DNA of 47,378 nucleotides from Candidatus Poseidoniaceae archaeon. Lineage in GTDB: Archaea > Thermoplasmatota > Poseidoniia > Poseidoniales > Poseidoniaceae. The DNA lies in assembly GCA_038125145.1 (NCBI GenBank), contig JAYPDK010000004.1, positions 5,505 through 52,882 on the forward strand, given 5' to 3'. This document shows positions 7,458 through 41,119 of this stretch, in pieces. A program made the translations under genes and the position numbers. The notes under the pieces were generated by a model that saw only the letters and a program-made list of their open reading frames with translations, was not told where the DNA came from and ran no database searches. Position 1 is the stretch's first letter; every line of letters begins with the position of its first letter.

Positions 7458-8504
7458 ATGCTTGAGGACGAGGACTCCGACATCGGCGACGGCATCGAGG
7501 CGGTCCCCAGCGAGGTCCTTGTTGACGAAGACAGGGACGACATGCTTGAGGAGATGTCCCTCGAAGCGAGGCTCGAAGGCCTCGAACGCGCCCGCTGGAA
7601 CGTCTTCATGTTCCTTGGTGTTGCGGTCATCATGTTCGCTTTCGCCCTCTTCCCCATGTCCTTCTCCACCGAATACCAGGCCTCGTTTGCAGGGGCTCAG
7701 GCCACGAAGGACGTGGGGCTCGTGTGGGGGATGCCCATTCCCGGGAACGACGTCACCGATGTCCCGGTGCGCGTCACGGTGGACGTCGAGTCCCCTCCCC
7801 CAACGCACATCGAACTCGTGGGATACATGGTGAACGAGAAGGACTGCACCAACTCCGAGGCGTTGTCCTTAGGTCAAGAAGCCGCAGAAGCGGATCCCAC
7901 GGGCGATCACGCCTTTGCGACGACGGGGAACACCGTGGTTGGTGGCGAAACCGTGGAGTTGCGGTTCCGTGTGGATCCTGGCCAGTACTGTCTGATTGTG
8001 AAGTTCCGCGACGTCGACCAAAACAATGCTGACGAATCTGGAACGGCGCAGGTTGAGATCACAGGAAAGATGTGGCCGAACCAAGCGATCGCCGGTGTGC
8101 TCGGCTTGACCGCCATCGTCTTCGCTGCCCTCTCCTTTGTCGGCGCACAGCGGCACGGGCATGACGTCCGTGAGATGCAGCAACCCAAAGAAGCCACCAT
8201 CGAACAAACCGTCCTTGCTGCCTCTGGTCCAAGCGGACCCCCGGCAGCAGGCCCGTCCGGCCCACCTCGTTCCGGTCCAAGCGGCCCCCCGGGTGACCCA
8301 AGCGAAGGGTCCGGTGCACCGTCAACGGAGGATGCCGCTCCCGCCGCCTCCGAGCCAGCCGTGCTGCAACAGGACGAGGACGGAACAGCCTGGCTCGACG
8401 CAGGAAACGGCTACGTGCACAAGCGAATGCCGGACGGGAGTTTCGACCAGACGATTTGGGTTCGCGGGCCAGACGGCGATGGTTTCGTTCCCCACGAGGC
8501 GTGA
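7458..8504 (+). CDS. Two-TM membrane protein: acidic N-terminus, external domain, GPSGPP-repeat linker, small aromatic C-terminal domain
   Basis: TM1 VFMFLGVAVIMFAFALFP and TM2 IAGVLGLTAIVFAALSFVGA. TTGAAG lies 24 nt before ATG 7458. Confidence 0.8.
   Translation: MLEDEDSDIGDGIEAVPSEVLVDEDRDDMLEEMSLEARLEGLERARWNVFMFLGVAVIMFAFALFPMSFSTEYQASFAGAQATKDVGLVWGMPIPGNDVTDVPVRVTVDVESPPPTHIELVGYMVNEKDCTNSEALSLGQEAAEADPTGDHAFATTGNTVVGGETVELRFRVDPGQYCLIVKFRDVDQNNADESGTAQVEITGKMWPNQAIAGVLGLTAIVFAALSFVGAQRHGHDVREMQQPKEATIEQTVLAASGPSGPPAAGPSGPPRSGPSGPPGDPSEGSGAPSTEDAAPAASEPAVLQQDEDGTAWLDAGNGYVHKRMPDGSFDQTIWVRGPDGDGFVPHEA
8224..8292 (+). repeat. Three GPSGPP peptide repeats within the CDS
   Basis: SGPSGPPAAGPSGPPRSGPSGPP; ggtccaagcgg occurs twice at the DNA level. 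Confidence 0.7.
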
Positions 8505-8584
8505 CGGATTCCACCTGAGGCGTAGCCAACGACCCTCAGCCTTCAAATTGGCTGGATGGGAGGACGTCTTTGGAGGTGGGAACC

Positions 8585-10753
8585 ATGACGTCGTCGTCTT
8601 CGCTCACGGTTGCGAAATTGAAGGCCCTGTGCGTCCTTCATGACCTTCCGACCTCCGGCAAGAAGGCCGACCTCGTGGAGCGACTGCTTGAGGCGGGGAT
8701 CGACGCCACCACCCTTGGCTTGGAGGTGAATCCTTCAGAGGAAGCGGACGACGAGGAGGTGACCATCTCCCTGGAAACCAACGCTCCAGAACCTGCCTCC
8801 CAGCCTTCAGAGGTCCCGGAAGCAAAGGACACCGTCCCCCTGCCAGTGGCAGCCTCCACCCAACCTGCCGACAGCGAAGAGGTGCTTGAGGCCGAGGTCC
8901 TTGAGGCAGAGATCCTCGAGGGCGATGTGGAAGCGGCACCCGGCGAGGCCGCCGTGGAGGTTCCGGACGTCCCTTCGCCTGCCGTACCTCTTCCGAAGAG
9001 CGCCCCCCGGTCCCCCGCAACCATCAGGGACATGACGGCCTCGCCGCGGGTCGCCGTCGGGCTCGTGCTGGTCCTCCTGGTCGCGGGGGCGGGTTGGTAC
9101 TGGTTCGGCCAGCAGGTGGAGCCGGTCACCGTCGATACCTTGCGGTACGGCGACGGCATGGACTTTCTGCTCCTCGATGGTCACCTGGTCGCGACCGATG
9201 GCTTCGTCGAACCTGTGGTGGAGCAACTCGGCATCGACGATGACATCTGTCGGCTGGAACTCGATTTTGGTGGCGATGGGCGCGTCGAAGTGAACGAAGG
9301 CGGCCTGCTGGACATCCCTTCTCAAGGCAGCGACACCGAACTGCTCGGCAGCGTGACCGTCCGTGGAGCGCACGGTGCGGAATGGCTGGCGGTCGAAAAA
9401 ACGGCCACCTACGACCTTGAGGACCTGACCGTTCGTCGCCACCTCCCGAGCCTCGTACCGGGTTCGACCGGTTGTTCCAGCAGTTCGGCGGCGGCCACGG
9501 GCTCGGCCACCCTCGACCTCAGGTCGTGGACCGAATTGAGCGACCGAGCCGTCCTTCGAACCGAAGCGGACTGGACCCTCGATTTGGAAGGCTATGTCGG
9601 CGGCACGACCACAACCTACGGCGTTGGGGGCCTTCTCGGCGCGTTCGAGGTGTTCGCTCCCGGCCTTTCCATGCTCATGCAACCGGTTGAACTGCAGGAC
9701 CTTGTCGGCAGCACGCCAATCGAAACGAACGCGCAAGGCTCGGGCCTCGGATGGGACTGGGCCGTGGTGAACGCCGAAGATTTCGGGGGCCAACGAATGT
9801 GGCGCATCGTTGCTGTGCAGCCAGACCTTGCGACATATTGCCTTGGCAGCGCCACCCTCACGATGTGGGTGGAGGCCGACAACCCGTGGGCGAGCAAGCA
9901 AGAGGTGGACGTGCGCTTGAGCGGCGCCGATCAAGACCGCAGCGGCTGCTCGACCCTTTCTCAGCAACTTGGTGACGCTGTGCTCCCAGAGGGCGAATTC
10001 CGACTGTCGCACACCTTCGAGCGACTCAACGTGGAACGTGGCTCGGACCGTTTGGATCTGGGCGCCACCTACCTTGGCCGTCCGCGGCCGAACGAACTTG
10101 GTCCCGAAGCAGACGAGCTGACCGCGTGGACGCGAACGCAATCCCACGTGCCCGATGGCTCAAGCATGGCGACGAGCACCCTTGAATCCGCCATGGCTTG
10201 CCTGTCGGACGTCGGCTCTCAGGCTGCAGGTGCAAACGGGGCACTGGACGACCGGGACGGCTACGTGTGGCGTTCAACAGGCGAGCATGGTGCCGAATCC
10301 GATGCGTGGAACATCTCGTGGATCGGCAACGACGACGCGCACGGTTGGGTCCTGCTGGAGGTGGGGCATGGCGAGAATGCCTCGTGCACCTTTGTGGACA
10401 AGGGGGCGCTCGACCTTGGGTTGAGCTGGAACCGAGACGGCGCCCCTTCGGTGCTTTCCCTGAGCGAGGTTGAAGCGGTGCTTGGAGAGGCCGCTCGATT
10501 CCCTGAATTGTCGCGCCTGTTCGACGGCGACGGTGGCTACAATGAGGGGGTACGTCGAGGCGTGCTGGTCGCCGTTCCCGACGACGGGTGGACTGGCTTG
10601 TTGAGTGAGTTTGCAGGGGATGGAGCAGGAGCGACAACCTACGACCTCGTTCGGACATGGGAGGAGAGCGGATTGGAACGCTCGCTCAGCGTTGCCGTCG
10701 ACGCCACGAGCGGCCGCCTGTTGGCGACGTCGTACGTCGAGCGCCCCGCGTGA
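8585..10753 (+). CDS. Membrane-anchored protein: N-terminal SAP domain, acidic/Pro linker, one TM, about 545-aa Cys-containing external domain
   Basis: SAP signature LTVAKLKALCVLHDLPTSGKKADLVERL; TM VAVGLVLVLLVAGAGWYWF; SD GGAGGTG before ATG 8585. Confidence 0.85.
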   Translation: MTSSSSLTVAKLKALCVLHDLPTSGKKADLVERLLEAGIDATTLGLEVNPSEEADDEEVTISLETNAPEPASQPSEVPEAKDTVPLPVAASTQPADSEEVLEAEVLEAEILEGDVEAAPGEAAVEVPDVPSPAVPLPKSAPRSPATIRDMTASPRVAVGLVLVLLVAGAGWYWFGQQVEPVTVDTLRYGDGMDFLLLDGHLVATDGFVEPVVEQLGIDDDICRLELDFGGDGRVEVNEGGLLDIPSQGSDTELLGSVTVRGAHGAEWLAVEKTATYDLEDLTVRRHLPSLVPGSTGCSSSSAAATGSATLDLRSWTELSDRAVLRTEADWTLDLEGYVGGTTTTYGVGGLLGAFEVFAPGLSMLMQPVELQDLVGSTPIETNAQGSGLGWDWAVVNAEDFGGQRMWRIVAVQPDLATYCLGSATLTMWVEADNPWASKQEVDVRLSGADQDRSGCSTLSQQLGDAVLPEGEFRLSHTFERLNVERGSDRLDLGATYLGRPRPNELGPEADELTAWTRTQSHVPDGSSMATSTLESAMACLSDVGSQAAGANGALDDRDGYVWRSTGEHGAESDAWNISWIGNDDAHGWVLLEVGHGENASCTFVDKGALDLGLSWNRDGAPSVLSLSEVEAVLGEAARFPELSRLFDGDGGYNEGVRRGVLVAVPDDGWTGLLSEFAGDGAGATTYDLVRTWEESGLERSLSVAVDATSGRLLATSYVERPA

Positions 10754-10832
10754 ACGCAGACCTCGGCAGGCGTGCCTTTCACGCCCCGGCCCGCCGTCAC
10801 CTCCAAAGCCTCCAGAGGACGCATCGTCCCTG

Positions 10833-11762
10833 ATGGGTGAGCGTGAGCGGTCCCTCGCCGTGGCCGAAGCCGAGTTTGAGGAGGTGCCCATCGCTCCTCG
10901 CGGTCTCGGCCTCAACGACGGTCAACCGGGTACAGCGAAGCCACGTGCGCCGCTCGCCCTTCCACCGATGGCTCCGTTGACCCTTGGACGGGCACGCGTC
11001 GTCGCGGTGATGAACCAGAAAGGGGGGGTCGGGAAAACCACCACCGTGATCAATTTGGCCGCTGCGTTGGCACAGGCGGGCTCCAGGGTGCTGATCGTCG
11101 ACCTCGATGCCCAAGGCAACTGCGCGACGGGGCTTGGCATTCGCAAGGCTGACGTGGAGCGCAGCACGCGTGACCTGCTGCTCCAACCCGAGGCGGCTGG
11201 TGCCTGCAGGTACGCCACGTCCATTGAGAACCTGCACCTCGTGGTCGGCGACCGACGTCTGGTTGGCATCGAGGACGTGCTCGTGTCTGAACTCGGACGC
11301 GAGTCACGGCTTGCAGAGGGCCTGCAGCCCTTGCTGCCACACTACGATCTCGTGCTCATCGACACGCCGCCGAACCTAGGCTTGCTGGCGGTGAACGCGA
11401 TGTGCGCGGCCGACGGCGTCGTGATCCCCGTGCAAACGGAGTACTTCGCCCTCGAAGGCATCGCGATGCTGTTGCGCACCGTCGAACAGGTCCGCTTGCG
11501 CCTGAATCCTCGGCTTGGGGTGGATGGCGTGCTGATGACGATGCACGCGCCCACGTTGCTGAACAACCAGATCGCAGGGCAACTCCGGGAGCACCTTGGC
11601 AACGCTGTGGTGGAACCGCCCATCCGTCGCAACATTCGCCTCGCTGAAGCCACGAGCGAAGGGGAACCAATCCACGTGCACGCGCCTCGCTCCAACGGAG
11701 GGCAAGACCACCTGAGGATCGCGCAAGCCCTTGGGCGTCGATGGGGACTTTCGAAGGGGTGA
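10833..11762 (+). CDS. parA: ParA/Soj-family ATPase (ParA-1) with an N-terminal extension of about 55 aa
   Basis: Deviant Walker A NQKGGVGKTTT, DLDAQGN, IDTPPNLG, IPVQTEYFALEG and IRRNIRLAEA. Start set at ATG 10833. Confidence 0.92.
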   Translation: MGERERSLAVAEAEFEEVPIAPRGLGLNDGQPGTAKPRAPLALPPMAPLTLGRARVVAVMNQKGGVGKTTTVINLAAALAQAGSRVLIVDLDAQGNCATGLGIRKADVERSTRDLLLQPEAAGACRYATSIENLHLVVGDRRLVGIEDVLVSELGRESRLAEGLQPLLPHYDLVLIDTPPNLGLLAVNAMCAADGVVIPVQTEYFALEGIAMLLRTVEQVRLRLNPRLGVDGVLMTMHAPTLLNNQIAGQLREHLGNAVVEPPIRRNIRLAEATSEGEPIHVHAPRSNGGQDHLRIAQALGRRWGLSKG

Positions 11763-11766
11763 ACGG

Positions 11767-12162
11767 ATGTCTGGATCCACTGGAGGGCGTGGCCTCGACC
11801 ACTTGATGGAACAGAACGCCACGGAGCTTGGCTTCCTCGATGCGTACGGTCCACGCGATGAGGAACCTGCGCAGGTGCTGGAAGAAATAGCACGTCGTTT
11901 GAAGCGCCTCAACGCCACGGTGGAGGCGTCAGAGGTCGCTGCGGGCGGCCTTCGCATCGTCGCCGAACCAGACGGCTGCCACGTGTCGTGGTCCGGAGCG
12001 ACGCTGCCGCTCGTGCCTTCCGACCTCGTCCAGCCAGGGATGCGGGAAGGCCGATTGAGTGAGGCACGTGATGCAGCACACCTCGTGGTGTACGGTTGGA
12101 CACACGAGGTACGTCGGTTCTTTGAGCGTGCGGCGGAGCACGAAGGCTCAGGTCTGGCGTGA
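11767..12162 (+). CDS. Small ParA-associated protein with a ParB-like N-terminal peptide (GGRGLDHL)
   Basis: Starts 4 nt after the parA stop; 131 aa. No GxRR CTPase motif or HTH was recognised. Confidence 0.72.
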   Translation: MSGSTGGRGLDHLMEQNATELGFLDAYGPRDEEPAQVLEEIARRLKRLNATVEASEVAAGGLRIVAEPDGCHVSWSGATLPLVPSDLVQPGMREGRLSEARDAAHLVVYGWTHEVRRFFERAAEHEGSGLA

Positions 12163-12720
12163 GCCCATTCGCACCGCGACGGCGGCACCCATCAAGGCGC
12201 CCACCGTGAGCACAACGCCCGGGCCGGGGGCATCTTCCTCGTCTTCGGCACATCCTTCTCCATCGACGTCGGGTCCTCCCCAAGCGGTGCCATCGAACCA
12301 GCACGAAGACCAGACCTTGTACCAATCCGCATCGGGGAAATCCTCTGTGCTGCCGTCCTCCCACGTGATGCGGGCGCGCCAGTTCACGTACGTGTGGTCG
12401 TCCTGTGGCGTGAGGCCGATCGTGTACGTGGAGCCGTCCTCGGAGACCGTTGCTGTCTGCGTGACAGGAGGGTCACAGACGCCGTCGTTGGTGCAAATTT
12501 GTGTGGTGAGCGACAAGGTCGAACCGTTGGCCACGACGTCGTCGTCCAGCACCAATGTCAGGCTCCAGGGCGATCCGGAGACCGAGGGTGACGTTGCATC
12601 GTGGGCTGCGAATGGCGTGGCGTCGAGGTCGGGGCCGACGTCACTGCCCCCCGTTCCTCCTGCGGAGGCCGTGCTCAAAAGCACGACAAGGAGCAGGCCA
12701 AGCCACGTGCGGTTCACCAT
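12148..12720 (-). CDS. Secreted protein with a PGF-CTERM-like C-terminal sorting signal
   Basis: Signal peptide MVNRTWLGLLLVVLLSTASA, four Cys, and the C-terminus EEDAPGPGVVLTVGALMGAAVAVR (PG motif, TM, basic residue). Confidence 0.75.
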   Translation of the reverse strand: MVNRTWLGLLLVVLLSTASAGGTGGSDVGPDLDATPFAAHDATSPSVSGSPWSLTLVLDDDVVANGSTLSLTTQICTNDGVCDPPVTQTATVSEDGSTYTIGLTPQDDHTYVNWRARITWEDGSTEDFPDADWYKVWSSCWFDGTAWGGPDVDGEGCAEDEEDAPGPGVVLTVGALMGAAVAVRMGSRQT

Positions 12721-12761
12721 GGCGGACCCTCGCATCGGTCAGGAATGAAGGTGTTGATGCA

Positions 12762-13268
12762 TCATTCCATGTCCCACAACTCATCGCCGACCCAGTGAAC
12801 GGTCTTCACCGCCTTCCCCGAGGTGGCGCTGGGCATCAGCCCGCCGTCCATCGTGGCCCAACCAAGCGCCAGCGGACGGTGGTGCGTTTCGTCACGAACC
12901 CAGACCAGGTCTCCTTCCTTGACCTCGGGGTCGGCGTCGCTGACCCCCGCCACCATGCAATCGGCTCCGTTCATGAGGAAACTGATGGCACCGTGGTCCA
13001 CGGAGACCCATCGCTTGGCCTCTGGATGTTCAATGAGTCCTCGAAGGGTCAAGGCCGCGATGGCTTCCTCCTCGGGGTTGGCGATTCGGACGGCCTTCGG
13101 AGTCTTGTCCACAAAAACGAGGTCCCACGGCCCATACTCGGCCTGTTCTAGGAAGGCTCCGTCAACGTTCAGGTCGATGCCCAGCACCCGCTCCAAGTCC
13201 TTCAGGAGGGGAGCGATGGCCTTCCGACGAACGGGCCGGCGTTTTCGGATGCTCCAGTCCTTCACCAT
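12762..13268 (-). CDS. PUA-domain RNA-binding protein (DUF1947 + PUA, MCTS1-like)
   Basis: LTLRGL, VSVDHGAISFLMNGADCMVAGV, GDLVWVRDETHHRPLALG and GKAVKTVHWVGDELW. Confidence 0.9.
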   Translation of the reverse strand: MVKDWSIRKRRPVRRKAIAPLLKDLERVLGIDLNVDGAFLEQAEYGPWDLVFVDKTPKAVRIANPEEEAIAALTLRGLIEHPEAKRWVSVDHGAISFLMNGADCMVAGVSDADPEVKEGDLVWVRDETHHRPLALGWATMDGGLMPSATSGKAVKTVHWVGDELWDME

Positions 13269-13341
13269 GTTCCACGCTCCATGCCCTCCCCCTTGACGCT
13301 TGCGCGGGAGGGTCCAAGACCGGACGACGTCTGCGTCGTCC

Positions 13342-13935
13342 ATGACGCTCTGGTGTGCCATTCGAACCTTCGCAGCCCACGCCGACGAACTGGGCAACCC
13401 TCGGCCAACCGCGCCGATCGTCTTCCTCAAACCGGACGCAAGCCTGATCGAAGGGCCCATCGACCTGAGCGGGCACGACGGCGAAGTGCATCACGAAGTC
13501 GAGTTGGTGCTTCGACTCGACGCGACGTTGCAGGTCTCGCACATCGCCGTCGGCCTTGACCTCACGGACCGAGCAGCACAGGCAGCAGCACGCCCAGAAG
13601 GGCTGCCGTGGGCACGCGGGAAGGCCTTCCGAGGGGCGGCACGCGTGGGGCCTTGGGTCCAGTGGAACAAGGGCGTCGAGGGGCTTCTCGACCTCTCCCT
13701 TGAATTGCGCGTGGACGATGAAGTACGTCAATCAGCGGCCCTGCGAAGCATGAGCATCACTCCGAGCGCCTTGCTCGACGACCTCCGGCGCTGGGCGCCC
13801 TTGGCCGAAGGCGACCTGCTGTTCACGGGCACGCCTTCGGGTGTTGGTCGCCTTCATCCTGGTGAACGTGTGGTGGCCGACCTTCTTTCGTCAAATGGCG
13901 TCCTCGTGTCGCAGATTGACCTGATGTGTTGCTGA
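13342..13935 (+). CDS. Fumarylacetoacetate hydrolase family protein (FAHD/YcgM-like)
   Basis: PIVFLKP, HHEVEL, VGLDLTDR, GLPWARGKAF and GDLLFTGTPSGVG. Confidence 0.92.
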   Translation: MTLWCAIRTFAAHADELGNPRPTAPIVFLKPDASLIEGPIDLSGHDGEVHHEVELVLRLDATLQVSHIAVGLDLTDRAAQAAARPEGLPWARGKAFRGAARVGPWVQWNKGVEGLLDLSLELRVDDEVRQSAALRSMSITPSALLDDLRRWAPLAEGDLLFTGTPSGVGRLHPGERVVADLLSSNGVLVSQIDLMCC

Positions 13936-13989
13936 GGGTGGCTTTCATATACGCCGTGCAAGTCGCCGAGGCTACGAGGTGAGCAATCC

Positions 13990-14370
13990 ATGGCACAATG
14001 GCACGGCATCTCTCGACGCAAGACGAGCGGCGGACGACGGGTTCAGGCCCGTGGAAAGCGCAAGACGGAAATCTCGAGCGAGAAGCAGTTCGCCCTCGTT
14101 GGTGAACCCAAGCGCAAGATCTACCGCAAGGCCGGTGGGAACACGATGGTCCGCGTGATGGCGGAGAACCGTGTGGCCGTCGCCGACCCTGCCAAGGGCA
14201 AGACGACGATGGGCACCATCCTCAGCGTGGTCGAGAACGAATCCGACCCGAACTACGTCCGTCGGAACATCCTCGTCAAGGGGGCCATCATCGACACCGA
14301 CAAGGGCCGTGTTCGCATCACGTCCCGTCCGGGCAAGGACGGGGTCATCAACGGCGTCCTGGTCGAGTGA
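13990..14370 (+). CDS. rps8e: 30S ribosomal protein S8e (eS8)
   Basis: SRRKTSGGR, GGNTMVR, NYVRRNILVKGAII and ITSRPGKDGVING; SD GAGGTGA. Confidence 0.97.
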   Translation: MAQWHGISRRKTSGGRRVQARGKRKTEISSEKQFALVGEPKRKIYRKAGGNTMVRVMAENRVAVADPAKGKTTMGTILSVVENESDPNYVRRNILVKGAIIDTDKGRVRITSRPGKDGVINGVLVE

Positions 14371-39563: not shown

Positions 39564-39827
39564 TCACGCCCACGTGACGGGCAGGTCCTCACGCAGACGC
39601 GCGAGTTCCTCACCGGTGTACATTGGTCGGCCACCGTCCTTCACCGTACTCTGGATCAGCCAAAGCACCCCGTTCCAGGCGTTTCGGCTGGCGTGGATGT
39701 CAAGGTCGCCTCTGGCAGCAACCTCGAGCAGGCGTGCTTCTTCTGTGGACGGGTCAAACAGGGCCCTCACCAAGTGCTTCGCATCAAAGGCCACCTGAGG
39801 TGGCTTCCAACTCATCATGGTGCTCAC
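39564..39827 (-). CDS. Truncated PIN-like protein (N-terminal half of a VapC/PIN_3-type fold)
   Basis: VAFDAKHLVRALF...ARLLEVAARGDLDIHAS resembles the PIN_3 start pattern VVLDTNVLVSAL...ARLL...G...S. GTGA overlap with the upstream RHH gene. Confidence 0.6.
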   Translation of the reverse strand: MSTMMSWKPPQVAFDAKHLVRALFDPSTEEARLLEVAARGDLDIHASRNAWNGVLWLIQSTVKDGGRPMYTGEELARLREDLPVTWA

Positions 39828-40066
39828 ACCTTGAAGGGAGCGAGCTTCAAGCGCTCGACCAAGTGGTCGACGTCGACGTTCGCAGCGTCCTTGGCGCGTG
39901 CTCGTAGCGTGCCGAGGCTTCCGTCCATACGGGCCATCCGATGCTGGCGAATCAGGTCCTGCAGCAGTTCATCCACGCTGCGGTACCCGCCATGGGTTCG
40001 CAAGGTGTTCAATTGTCGTCGTACTTCGTAGCTCACGCTCACGGAGGTCATCCCCTTCGCTGTCAT
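39824..40066 (-). CDS. Ribbon-helix-helix DNA-binding protein
   Basis: Strand TSVSVS, helix YEVRRQLNTLR, turn GGYRS, helix VDELLQDLI, then an extra C-terminal helical segment. Confidence 0.75.
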   Translation of the reverse strand: MTAKGMTSVSVSYEVRRQLNTLRTHGGYRSVDELLQDLIRQHRMARMDGSLGTLRARAKDAANVDVDHLVERLKLAPFKV

Positions 40067-40075
40067 CGTGCATCC

Positions 40076-40114
40076 CACGTGCGGCTTCCTTCGTGGCTAC
40101 TTAAGCCGCGCGTG
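40076..40114. promoter_or_regulatory. 12-bp inverted repeat (11/12 match) over the RHH-gene promoter
   Basis: CACGTGCGGCTT-N15-AAGCCGCGCGTG, overlapping the minus-strand TATA-like TTAAGTA at 40098-40104. Confidence 0.6.
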
Positions 40115-40156: not shown

Positions 40157-41119
40157 TCACCGACGGCCTTGGGACTCCAAGAGCACGCGGTTCGGCTCGG
40201 TGACGCCGTACTGCGAGCGCATGCTCTGGACCCGGTCGTGGAACTCCTTGGCTAAGGTCCAATATTCCAGGGAGCCCGCACCCGCCCCGTTGGGGCTTGG
40301 TTTGTTCAGCAGGACCGTCGGTGCACCCGACCATGGCGCTTCCGCGACGTTGACGAGCCGGCGAATCGAGGTGTTGAACAGCGTGTTGGGCATCTTCAGC
40401 GTGACTTGGTCCACCACGTGACGCGAGAGTTTGGATCGGGTGTCCACCATGGTCATGACCACGCCGAAGAACTTGAGGTTCCGGTTGATTCGTCGTTGGA
40501 TCATTTGAATGGAATTCATCAGCATGCTGAATCCCTCCAAGGAGTAGTATTCTGCTTGCACCGGGGCCACCACCCAATTGGCGGCGCTCAGGGCGTTGAT
40601 GGACAGGAGGCCCAGCGAAGGAGGTGTATCGATGATGATGTAGTCGAACTTGTCCACAATCGGCGCCAAGGCCTCACGAAGCCGGGTTTCACGTCCGATC
40701 TTGTGGGAGAGTTCAATCTCAGCACCGGAGAGGTGAATGTCGCTGGGGAGCAACCAGAGGTTTTCGGTGGTCAGGGTGGACGGGGGGCGCTTCTTTTCGT
40801 TGCGCATCATGAACGCGTTTCGCATGGAGTTGGTGAGGTCCTGTGGGTCGAGGAGGTAATCCTCCATCAAGGGCAACTCTTCGCCAAGGTCGTTCGTCAA
40901 GAGGTCGTAGGCCGTCTTTTTGATGCGCTTCTTCTCGATACCAAACGACGTGGCGCAGTTTCCTTGGGGGTCGAGGTCGATGAGGAGCACCTTGGCCGGG
41001 GGTAGGCCCATCCGTTCGTAACCCCGAGCTAAGGCCGCAGCAAGGTTGACCGCCGTTGTGGTCTTGGCACAGCCACCCTTCTGGTTCGCCACGGCGATGA
41101 CCATCTTGTAGGGGTCCAT
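40157..41119 (-). CDS. parA: ParA/Soj-family ATPase (ParA-2) with internal insertions
   Basis: NQKGGCAKTTT, DLDPQGN, LSGAEIEL, IDTPPSLGLL, PVQAEYYSLEG, TMVDTR and AEAP. Confidence 0.93.
   Translation of the reverse strand: MDPYKMVIAVANQKGGCAKTTTAVNLAAALARGYERMGLPPAKVLLIDLDPQGNCATSFGIEKKRIKKTAYDLLTNDLGEELPLMEDYLLDPQDLTNSMRNAFMMRNEKKRPPSTLTTENLWLLPSDIHLSGAEIELSHKIGRETRLREALAPIVDKFDYIIIDTPPSLGLLSINALSAANWVVAPVQAEYYSLEGFSMLMNSIQMIQRRINRNLKFFGVVMTMVDTRSKLSRHVVDQVTLKMPNTLFNTSIRRLVNVAEAPWSGAPTVLLNKPSPNGAGAGSLEYWTLAKEFHDRVQSMRSQYGVTEPNRVLLESQGRR

Follow-up and report, generated by a model that had tools for sequence, protein, structure and literature searches.

The stretch of DNA analysed here (the window) comprises 47,378 nucleotides (nt) with a G+C content of 64%, and belongs to a Candidatus Poseidoniaceae archaeon, a member of the marine group II archaea (Poseidoniales). 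Three co-oriented genes in it encode, in order, a membrane protein with an N-terminal SAP domain and one transmembrane segment (SAP-TM), a Soj-type ParA ATPase (ParA-1) and a small acidic protein that begins with a peptide like that by which bacterial ParB engages ParA. Together these features suggest an undescribed, probably membrane-linked mode of driving a ParA motor without ParB. An earlier note on this DNA had described the same three genes, and all three open reading frames (ORFs) lie where it had placed them (Table 1); its statement that the third gene starts 4 nt past parA-1 also holds, the TGA of parA-1 occupying positions 11760–11762 and the ATG of the small gene starting at 11767. 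Comparisons were drawn with a panel of 41 related genomes and with 97 distinct small-gene loci, 80 of which came from a pattern scan (the best 80 of 177 matches, biased towards the Poseidoniaceae form).

A small acidic protein with a ParB-type peptide

The peptide GGRGLDHLM near the start of the small protein corresponds in most orthologues to (K/R)x(G)LGRGLD(D/H)L(L/I/M), that is, to a motif placed after basic residues. The ParA-binding motif is defined as LG-R/K-GL in the accessible text of bioRxiv 2025.10.10.680097 and, in that of PMC12462528, residues L11, L15, L18 and I19 of the ParA-binding helix of Myxococcus xanthus ParB were picked for mutation, with R13 central. The spacing L-x-R-x-L-x-x-L-[ILM] is identical in the small-protein family and in M. 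xanthus ParB. The earlier note had singled out conservation of GRGL among orthologues for checking; the core R-G/D-L-x-x-L-[LIM] (scored as [KR][GD][LF]xx[LM][LIMF]) was present at 95/97 distinct orthologous loci. The strict motif, [LIF]G[KR]G[LIF], was found at 17/24 loci with an adjacent parA-1, compared with 7/71 loci without ParA-1. When the organism's own genome was scanned in six frames the motif occurred in three distinct open frames of at least 60 amino acids (aa), among which the small gene is the sole real gene, the other two being alternative frames of real genes.

Table 1. Features of the SAP–parA-1–small gene locus, and carriers of the peptide at other loci.
Feature	Position	Strand	Remarks
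A-rich conserved block 5′ of the SAP gene	8532..8548	+	From 10 aligned loci of the genus (130 nt 5′ of the SAP start)
Shine-Dalgarno-like GGAGGTG before the SAP gene	8572..8578	+	
SAP-TM protein	8585..10753	+	722 aa
SAP domain, residues 5–37	8597..8695	+	Pfam PF02037, E 2.6e-11; score 43.3 bits (cut-off 23.9)
Tandem pentads, hydrophobic-hydrophobic-[ED]-A-[ED], linker residues 100–116	8882..8932	+	In 56/62 orthologues
Single transmembrane segment, residues 156–174	9050..9106	+	Kyte-Doolittle 2.11
20-nt block 22–41 nt before the ParA-1 ATG	10793..10812	+	Invariant in 12/12 species of the genus; rest of spacer varies
ParA-1, Soj-type deviant Walker A ATPase	10833..11762	+	309 aa; AAA_31, E 4.4e-56
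ParA-1 N-terminal extension (~55 aa, lineage-specific), motif VAEAEFEE, residues 10–17	10860..10883	+	
ParA-1 C-terminal RWGL tail	11733..11762	+	Conserved, W304 invariant; past the end of the Soj match
Small acidic protein	11767..12162	+	131 aa; starts MSGSTGGRGLDHLM
ParB-like peptide GGRGLDHLM, small protein residues 6–14	11782..11808	+	
EamA carrier	L128:3557-4519	+	
EamA carrier	L122:1128-2111	-	
EamA carrier	L123:3899-4849	+	
EamA carriers	L167-L196		27 further loci
Non-ParB carrier, other Thermoplasmatota	L153:264-1490	-	
Non-ParB carrier, other Thermoplasmatota	L156:2255-3709	+	
Non-ParB carrier, other Thermoplasmatota	L159:147-1487	-	
Non-ParB carrier, other Thermoplasmatota	L150:2282-2575	+	

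Within the Poseidoniales the small proteins form a narrow family, on which purifying selection is strong. A profile search of 11767..12162, proposed in the earlier note, was run exhaustively over 1.84 billion representative proteins and returned 97 matches, all of them short apart from two read-throughs of ParA and a handful of repeat proteins matched spuriously. The gene was present in 31/41 relatives, and in all 24 genomes of the window's family besides its own. Within the genus, the ratio of non-synonymous to synonymous change (dN/dS) was 0.07–0.12, and the first 25 codons, compared between two species of the genus, showed no non-synonymous and ten synonymous changes. Conserved blocks after the peptide (EQNxTELxFLxAYG, LPLVPSDL and W..RR..ER..EH) span the whole length of the protein, with residues R8, L10, D11, L13, L21, F23, L24, L80, P81, D86, W111, R117, R121 and E124 invariant or nearly so. 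That the small ORF is a decaying, functionless remnant of a transferred parB might be proposed on the grounds that only the first ParB element is carried and that ParA-1 is of bacterial type, but the low dN/dS, the presence of the gene in every other genome of the family and across the order, and the distribution of conserved blocks make this barely credible.

Beyond the peptide, the protein resembles nothing in the collections searched. It had no match in Pfam, NCBIfam, PADLOC or the Protein Data Bank (PDB); neither the family profile nor the first 30 residues found a solved relative in the PDB; and a homologue searched against the ESM Atlas gave no matches. The earlier claim that the CTPase and helix-turn-helix (HTH) domains of ParB are missing from it is supported by these searches, there being no Pfam or NCBIfam match and no solved relative. 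Nor was there a match in Pfam to any ribbon-helix-helix (RHH) family, RHH being the fold looked for in partners of the HpaAB and type Ib kind. Moreover, the protein is acidic (pI 5.06, family median 4.84) and therefore, judged by charge, unlikely to bind DNA.

ParA-1 has as its nearest solved relative the Soj protein of Thermus thermophilus (1wcv, E 1.4e-56), which confirms the closeness to Soj noted earlier, and both Soj-like strings then quoted are present in its translation. Residues K63, K68, D90, D92 and D177 are invariant among 25 orthologues and, together with the AAA_31 and Soj matches, qualify it as an ATPase of the bacterial ParABS kind. By alignment together with reasoning from the offset, L182-G183-L184, V187 and L224 occupy the places of L150-G151-L152, L155 and L192, which form the ParB pocket of M. 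xanthus ParA. We consider it probable that the peptide binds ParA. Orthologues of ParA-1 (E <1e-89) are confined to the order and were present in 31/41 relatives, and their sequences form one clade (98% support) that branches by family, which is consistent with vertical descent and several later losses; on the tree of the SAP proteins, gain and loss of ParA-1 require a minimum of three changes, or five losses if only losses are allowed.

Other carriers of the peptide and the second ParA

The peptide is not restricted to the small protein. Thalassarchaeaceae-type genomes without the small gene have, directly after parA-1, a gene for an EamA transporter whose N-terminus bears the peptide followed by a PDLSSF block. 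The carrier has two EamA repeats (PF00892, E 5.6e-19 and 1.9e-24, two stretches each), and an orthologue was found in 44/81 genomes of the Thalassarchaeaceae-type family. In all 30 EamA loci fetched the transporter gene immediately follows parA-1; the motif is strict in 18, near in three and missing from nine. Origin of the fusion by loss of the space between adjacent genes was considered and rejected, there being no EamA gene near the small gene elsewhere.

Elsewhere in the Thermoplasmatota, at 8/9 loci of one family (f19), a protein of 409–485 aa overlaps the end of a Soj-like parA and starts with (M)GKxALGKGMxDL(I/L); these carriers are acidic and coiled-coil, and their C-terminal part gives a weak TPR-like match. 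At one locus of another family (f45) the gene after a Soj-like parA encodes a shorter protein with KKKALGRGLDTII (start ALGRGLDTII). This recurrence on unrelated proteins after Soj-like ParAs is the strongest support for a link between the peptide and ParA. Canonical ParB (TIGR00180 above its cut-off) was detected in 0/41 relatives compared with 8/14 control genomes, and this, together with the occurrence of the peptide on other carriers, supports the reading of the third protein as a 'mini-ParB'. The sole ParB_N match in the organism's own genome is a stand-alone ParB/Srx-like domain of 131 aa on contig C73 (L041:717-1112, minus strand), without either the LG-R/K-GL motif or an HTH.

The window encodes a second Soj-like ParA, ParA-2 (40157..41119, minus strand; AAA_31, E 2e-52), about 39–40% identical to ParA-1 and present in every genome checked. 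It is followed on the same strand by orf84 (39824..40078, 84 aa) and orf87 (39564..39827, 87 aa), and the trio recurs in 4/5 other genera; neither of the two small ORFs matched a known family in Pfam, NCBIfam or PDB searches, and the notion that orf84 is an RHH protein was dropped, as no match was obtained in any of the three. The ParA-2 trio is probably the order's universal ParA system. In the eight genomes without ParA-1 that were checked, ParA-2 is the only ParA. It keeps the PPSLGLL loop, and so may use the peptide where ParA-1 has been lost. A shared activator that serves ParA-2 at least as much as ParA-1, and has outlived the loss of the latter, would account for persistence of the motif in such genomes, given that ParA-2 is Soj-like and ubiquitous; it is very unlikely, however, to be what the small protein is, as ParA-2 has conserved downstream genes of its own in orf84 and orf87, and the small gene never adjoins parA-2 in the loci seen, its ancestral position being directly after parA-1.

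Gene order and the SAP-TM protein

The 97 loci were classed by gene order, presence or absence of ParA-1 being judged in the 95 with a readable upstream side. The order SAP-ParA-small was found at 21 loci and ParA-small, at a contig end, at three; 44 loci were SAP-small with no parA between, and 26 had neither SAP nor parA in reach. For three, contig ends permitted only partial classing; one of the three shows no parA. Synteny of the SAP gene, which the earlier note had proposed to check, extends across the order: SAP-ParA-small is found in all three families and the SAP-TM protein in 40/41 relatives. What accompanies the small gene consistently is the SAP gene rather than parA-1, ParA-1 being the dispensable member. 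Spacing is tight in both arrangements, with the small gene starting between −8 and +14 nt from the parA-1 stop in 22/23 loci and, where ParA-1 is absent, between −4 and +11 nt from the SAP stop in 42/43 loci, so as to overlap or abut it.

The SAP-TM protein had been described as comprising a SAP motif, an acidic/Pro linker, one transmembrane segment and a large external domain, and Pfam, composition and hydropathy bear out each of these. Its match to the SAP helix-extended loop-helix profile, PF02037, exceeds the gathering score, and 30/30 orthologues match at E ≤0.001; there is also a weak HeH match (E 0.026). The linker (residues 46–150) contains 26 D+E, 4 K+R and 16 P. Three Arg lie within 15 residues N-terminal of the hydrophobic segment and, since by the positive-inside rule basic residues flanking a transmembrane segment stay cytoplasmic, the SAP domain and linker are predicted to be cytoplasmic. 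The external domain (residues 190–722, ~530 aa) is acidic (pI 4.18) and had no match in Pfam, NCBIfam or the PDB; the full protein had no match in PADLOC, and nothing in the PDB past a weak match to the SAP domain of Tho1. SAP-TM is a candidate chromosome-membrane tether, in which the SAP domain would bind DNA. Some of the eukaryotic SAP and HeH/LEM-domain proteins that hold chromatin do so at the inner nuclear membrane. SAP-TM resembles this group in having a SAP domain that faces the cytoplasm and a single passage through the membrane; it differs in being archaeal and in its large acidic external domain without known family.

The N-terminal extension of ParA-1 contains a motif (two hydrophobic residues, then [ED][AV][ED]F.E) that was found in 22/27 orthologues compared with 0/6 ParA-2 and 0/11 other ParAs. 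This motif is like the pentads of the SAP linker, both having two hydrophobic residues followed by [ED]-[AV]-[ED], and both are rare in the organism's own genome; the two may mark a common docking site, which is a lead only. At the C-terminus, the RWGL tail could contact the membrane or a partner. The nucleotide sequence contains a 27-nt direct match, 78% identical, between 8741..8767 (SAP linker, EADDEEVTI) and 10866..10892 (ParA-1, EAEFEEVPI), which may be due to chance.

Upstream of the SAP gene, the block at 8532..8548 appears promoter-like. The invariant block before parA-1 is unique in the organism's own genome, contains CTCCAAAG at 10801..10808 (24 nt before the ATG) and may serve as an internal promoter or operator; folding of the SAP/parA-1 spacer as RNA gave 0/13 pairs with compensatory change. 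The earlier caveat that parA-1 may have a separate promoter fits this block and, as the SAP gene has an upstream block of its own, is reasonable. RNA-library contigs from two libraries span the junction of parA-1 and the small gene (X1, 11388-11840; X2, 11451-11817), which is weak evidence for co-transcription, since a contig over two genes does not prove a single transcript. The contigs have no coverage at 10758-11019 and 11937-12198, and are therefore uninformative on co-transcription of SAP and parA-1.

A proposed ParA–activator pair and its rivals

These data are read, tentatively and as quite possible, to mean that ParA-1 and the small protein are a ParA/activator pair, with SAP-TM the best candidate for what the small protein adapts to. 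The amphipathic N-terminal helix of the small protein would dock on the ParA-ATP dimer in the manner of ParB and speed ATP hydrolysis, and the acidic domain of ~85 aa would replace the CTPase, HTH and dimerisation domains of ParB and dock on something other than DNA. As this C-terminal domain is unlikely to bind DNA, the small protein would be an adaptor, not a centromere-binding protein: an activator/adaptor of Soj-type ParAs that either derives from ParB or mimics it. SAP-TM, anchored in the membrane, would have its SAP domain and acidic repeat linker facing the cytoplasm. ParA-1-ATP dimers on the nucleoid would then meet a membrane-held peptide, displayed by the small protein on SAP-TM or, as in certain genomes of the Thalassarchaeaceae type, fused to the EamA transporter; contact would bring about ATP hydrolysis and release of ParA-1, and nucleoid-envelope contacts would thereby be spaced or renewed. 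That a transporter takes the place of the acidic domain in some lineages suggests that the activator works at the membrane. Contact between the small protein and SAP-TM is conceivable though somewhat doubtful, and nucleoid-membrane positioning as the output is doubtful to a greater degree.

Several observations weigh against this reading. ParA-1 is absent from 71/95 readable loci, so that the earlier expectation of synteny between the small gene and parA holds for 24 loci and fails for the others, which include the SAP-small loci where the small gene lies at the SAP stop. Conversely, ParA-1 is retained and well conserved without a peptide carrier at 9/30 EamA loci, in one further genome (G027) and in five genomes that are 91–94% complete and in which the family profile finds no match; in another (G026) the parA-1 match is split in two pieces and the gene may be broken. 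Enrichment of the strict motif near ParA-1 rests on few events, as only three independent pairs are available on the SAP tree, and with so few there was no detectable link between presence of ParA-1 and of the first Leu. In the window itself ParA-1 is present, yet the protein reads G-G-R-G-L-D-H-L-M, in which position 1 is Gly rather than L, I or F; it consequently fails the strict motif, the other positions fitting. The earlier claim that the third protein keeps the activator peptide of ParB thus stands for the family, by the core and by the strict motif near parA-1, and falls short in the window's own copy, which misses the first hydrophobic residue. A repeat search of 8300..12400 gave short two-copy matches only and no array, hence no candidate centromere array (a single short parS site would escape such a search), and orc1/cdc6 is not close to the locus in two single-contig genomes, lying at least 186 kb away in G023 and ~520 kb away in G039.

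Also to be set against the reading are three features of linkage: the invariant upstream block that parA-1 has to itself, apart from the SAP gene; the distance from SAP stop to parA-1 start, which is 78–117 nt in 19/21 loci; and the 26 loci at which SAP and small gene are not linked, the two being ~100 kb apart in G023. All three would be accounted for if ParA-1 and the small protein, as a pair comparable to McdAB or PomXYZ, were to position a cargo other than the chromosome or SAP-TM, and the SAP gene were a mere long-standing neighbour with its own promoter. McdB and PomX/PomY are non-DNA-binding partners, encoded beside a ParA/MinD ATPase, that have an N-terminal activating peptide and provide the link to a protein cargo. 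The small protein is alike in this adaptor layout but unrelated to them in sequence, and what it carries is the actual ParB motif, which some genomes have fused to an integral membrane transporter. The acidity of the small protein, its lack of a known family and the great diversity of motif carriers elsewhere likewise fit a pair with other cargo. Such a pair is nonetheless unlikely, in view of SAP-ParA-small synteny in all three families, the coupling of the small gene to the SAP stop in 42/43 loci after loss of ParA-1, and the rare motif common to the SAP linker and the ParA-1 N-terminus.

The remaining difficulty for a ParA–activator pair is that the core of the peptide is kept without ParA-1, in 43/44 SAP-small loci and 26/26 loci with a lone small gene (69/70 of those classed); the peptide therefore either serves ParA-2 or has a role independent of ParA. 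In the latter case, the small protein could be a subunit or regulator of SAP-TM, with a helix that docks on SAP-TM or on the membrane and a likeness to ParB that is convergent or vestigial, and ParA-1 would act alone or directly with SAP-TM. Tight coupling of SAP and small gene where ParA-1 is absent, persistence of ParA-1 without any peptide carrier, and the lack of a testable signal coupling presence of ParA-1 to motif state would all agree with this. It would be hard, however, to explain without a link to ParA why the peptide heads unrelated proteins right after Soj-like ParAs. Of the small protein, moreover, the EamA fusions retain nothing beyond the first ~30 residues, which are conserved across several genera, and we regard a SAP-TM subunit as improbable.

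Taken as a ParA/activator pair, ParA-1 and the small protein would work after the fashion of ParAB, HpaAB and McdAB. One close comparison is with bacterial ParABS (Soj, Spo0J-ParB and parS), which shares the Soj-type ATPase, a next gene with the ParB motif at the same spacing, and a tight, parAB-like gap. The partner differs in being acidic and in having no ParB/Srx CTPase fold, HTH (PF02195, TIGR00180) or dimerisation domain; at the locus, differences are the lack of a parS-like array in 8300..12400, the distance of orc1/cdc6 and the presence of a SAP membrane protein as conserved third gene.

Archaeal pairs offer further parallels. HpaB of HpaAB, from Haloferax volcanii pHV3, is an RHH DNA binder and centromere-binding protein in the accessible text of PMC13722703; HpaAB and the type Ib ParA/ParG-like pairs, as that text presents them, resemble the present pair in an archaeal ParA of bacterial origin, an overlap or gap of a few nt and a partner of ~130–140 aa with no known family, and the short N-terminal helix of the HpaAB partner, modelled there to bind ParA, is like that of the small protein. 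The small protein differs from the HpaAB partner, so described, in having no RHH match, in being acidic and in a helix of the chromosomal ParB pattern, LG-R/K-GL. SegAB, on the accessible text of bioRxiv 2025.04.15.649018, is alike in having an archaeal ParA-like ATPase and a small downstream partner that touches the ATPase by its N-terminus. The C-terminal signature given there for SegB, (K/R)(D/N)P(K/R)I(G/T)(V/L)WS.., is absent from the small protein, and ParA-1 is far closer to bacterial Soj than to other solved ParAs. The layout is, as first suggested, distinct from both ParABS and SegAB, as the small protein has neither the ParB fold nor the SegB signature.

To our knowledge, archaeal chromosome segregation and organisation remain largely open, only SegAB and, recently, HpaAB having been studied. 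The locus pairs a ParA with a membrane protein that bears a eukaryote-type SAP domain and is a candidate chromosome-membrane tether. If the peptide acts as proposed, the part of ParB that controls ParA would be separable from ParB and movable to very different carriers, including an integral membrane protein, and would serve as a simple sequence marker by which unrecognised ParA partners could be sought in uncultured archaea. A wider scheme, speculative and rather unlikely in its full extent, would have the Poseidoniales (with other forms across the Thermoplasmatota) run ParAs without a centromere-binding ParB, the peptide being displayed on membrane-held carriers that do not bind DNA and the motor organising nucleoid-envelope contacts instead of pulling centromeres; if true, archaea that are among the most abundant in the surface ocean would use a ParB-free, membrane-referenced partition mechanism. 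No published description of this arrangement was found in a literature search that did not extend to supplementary files, where the trees of bioRxiv 2025.10.10.680097 may include archaeal proteins with the motif.

An Rfam scan of the window returned two tRNAs only, both outside the locus. The region 3′ of the small gene (12148..14370) encodes a convergent secreted protein of ~190 aa, PUA-like and FAH-like proteins, ribosomal protein S8e and SRP19, these names having been read from the translations by us. This downstream context is retained even at loci without the SAP gene and parA-1, where the small gene therefore remains at its ancestral site.

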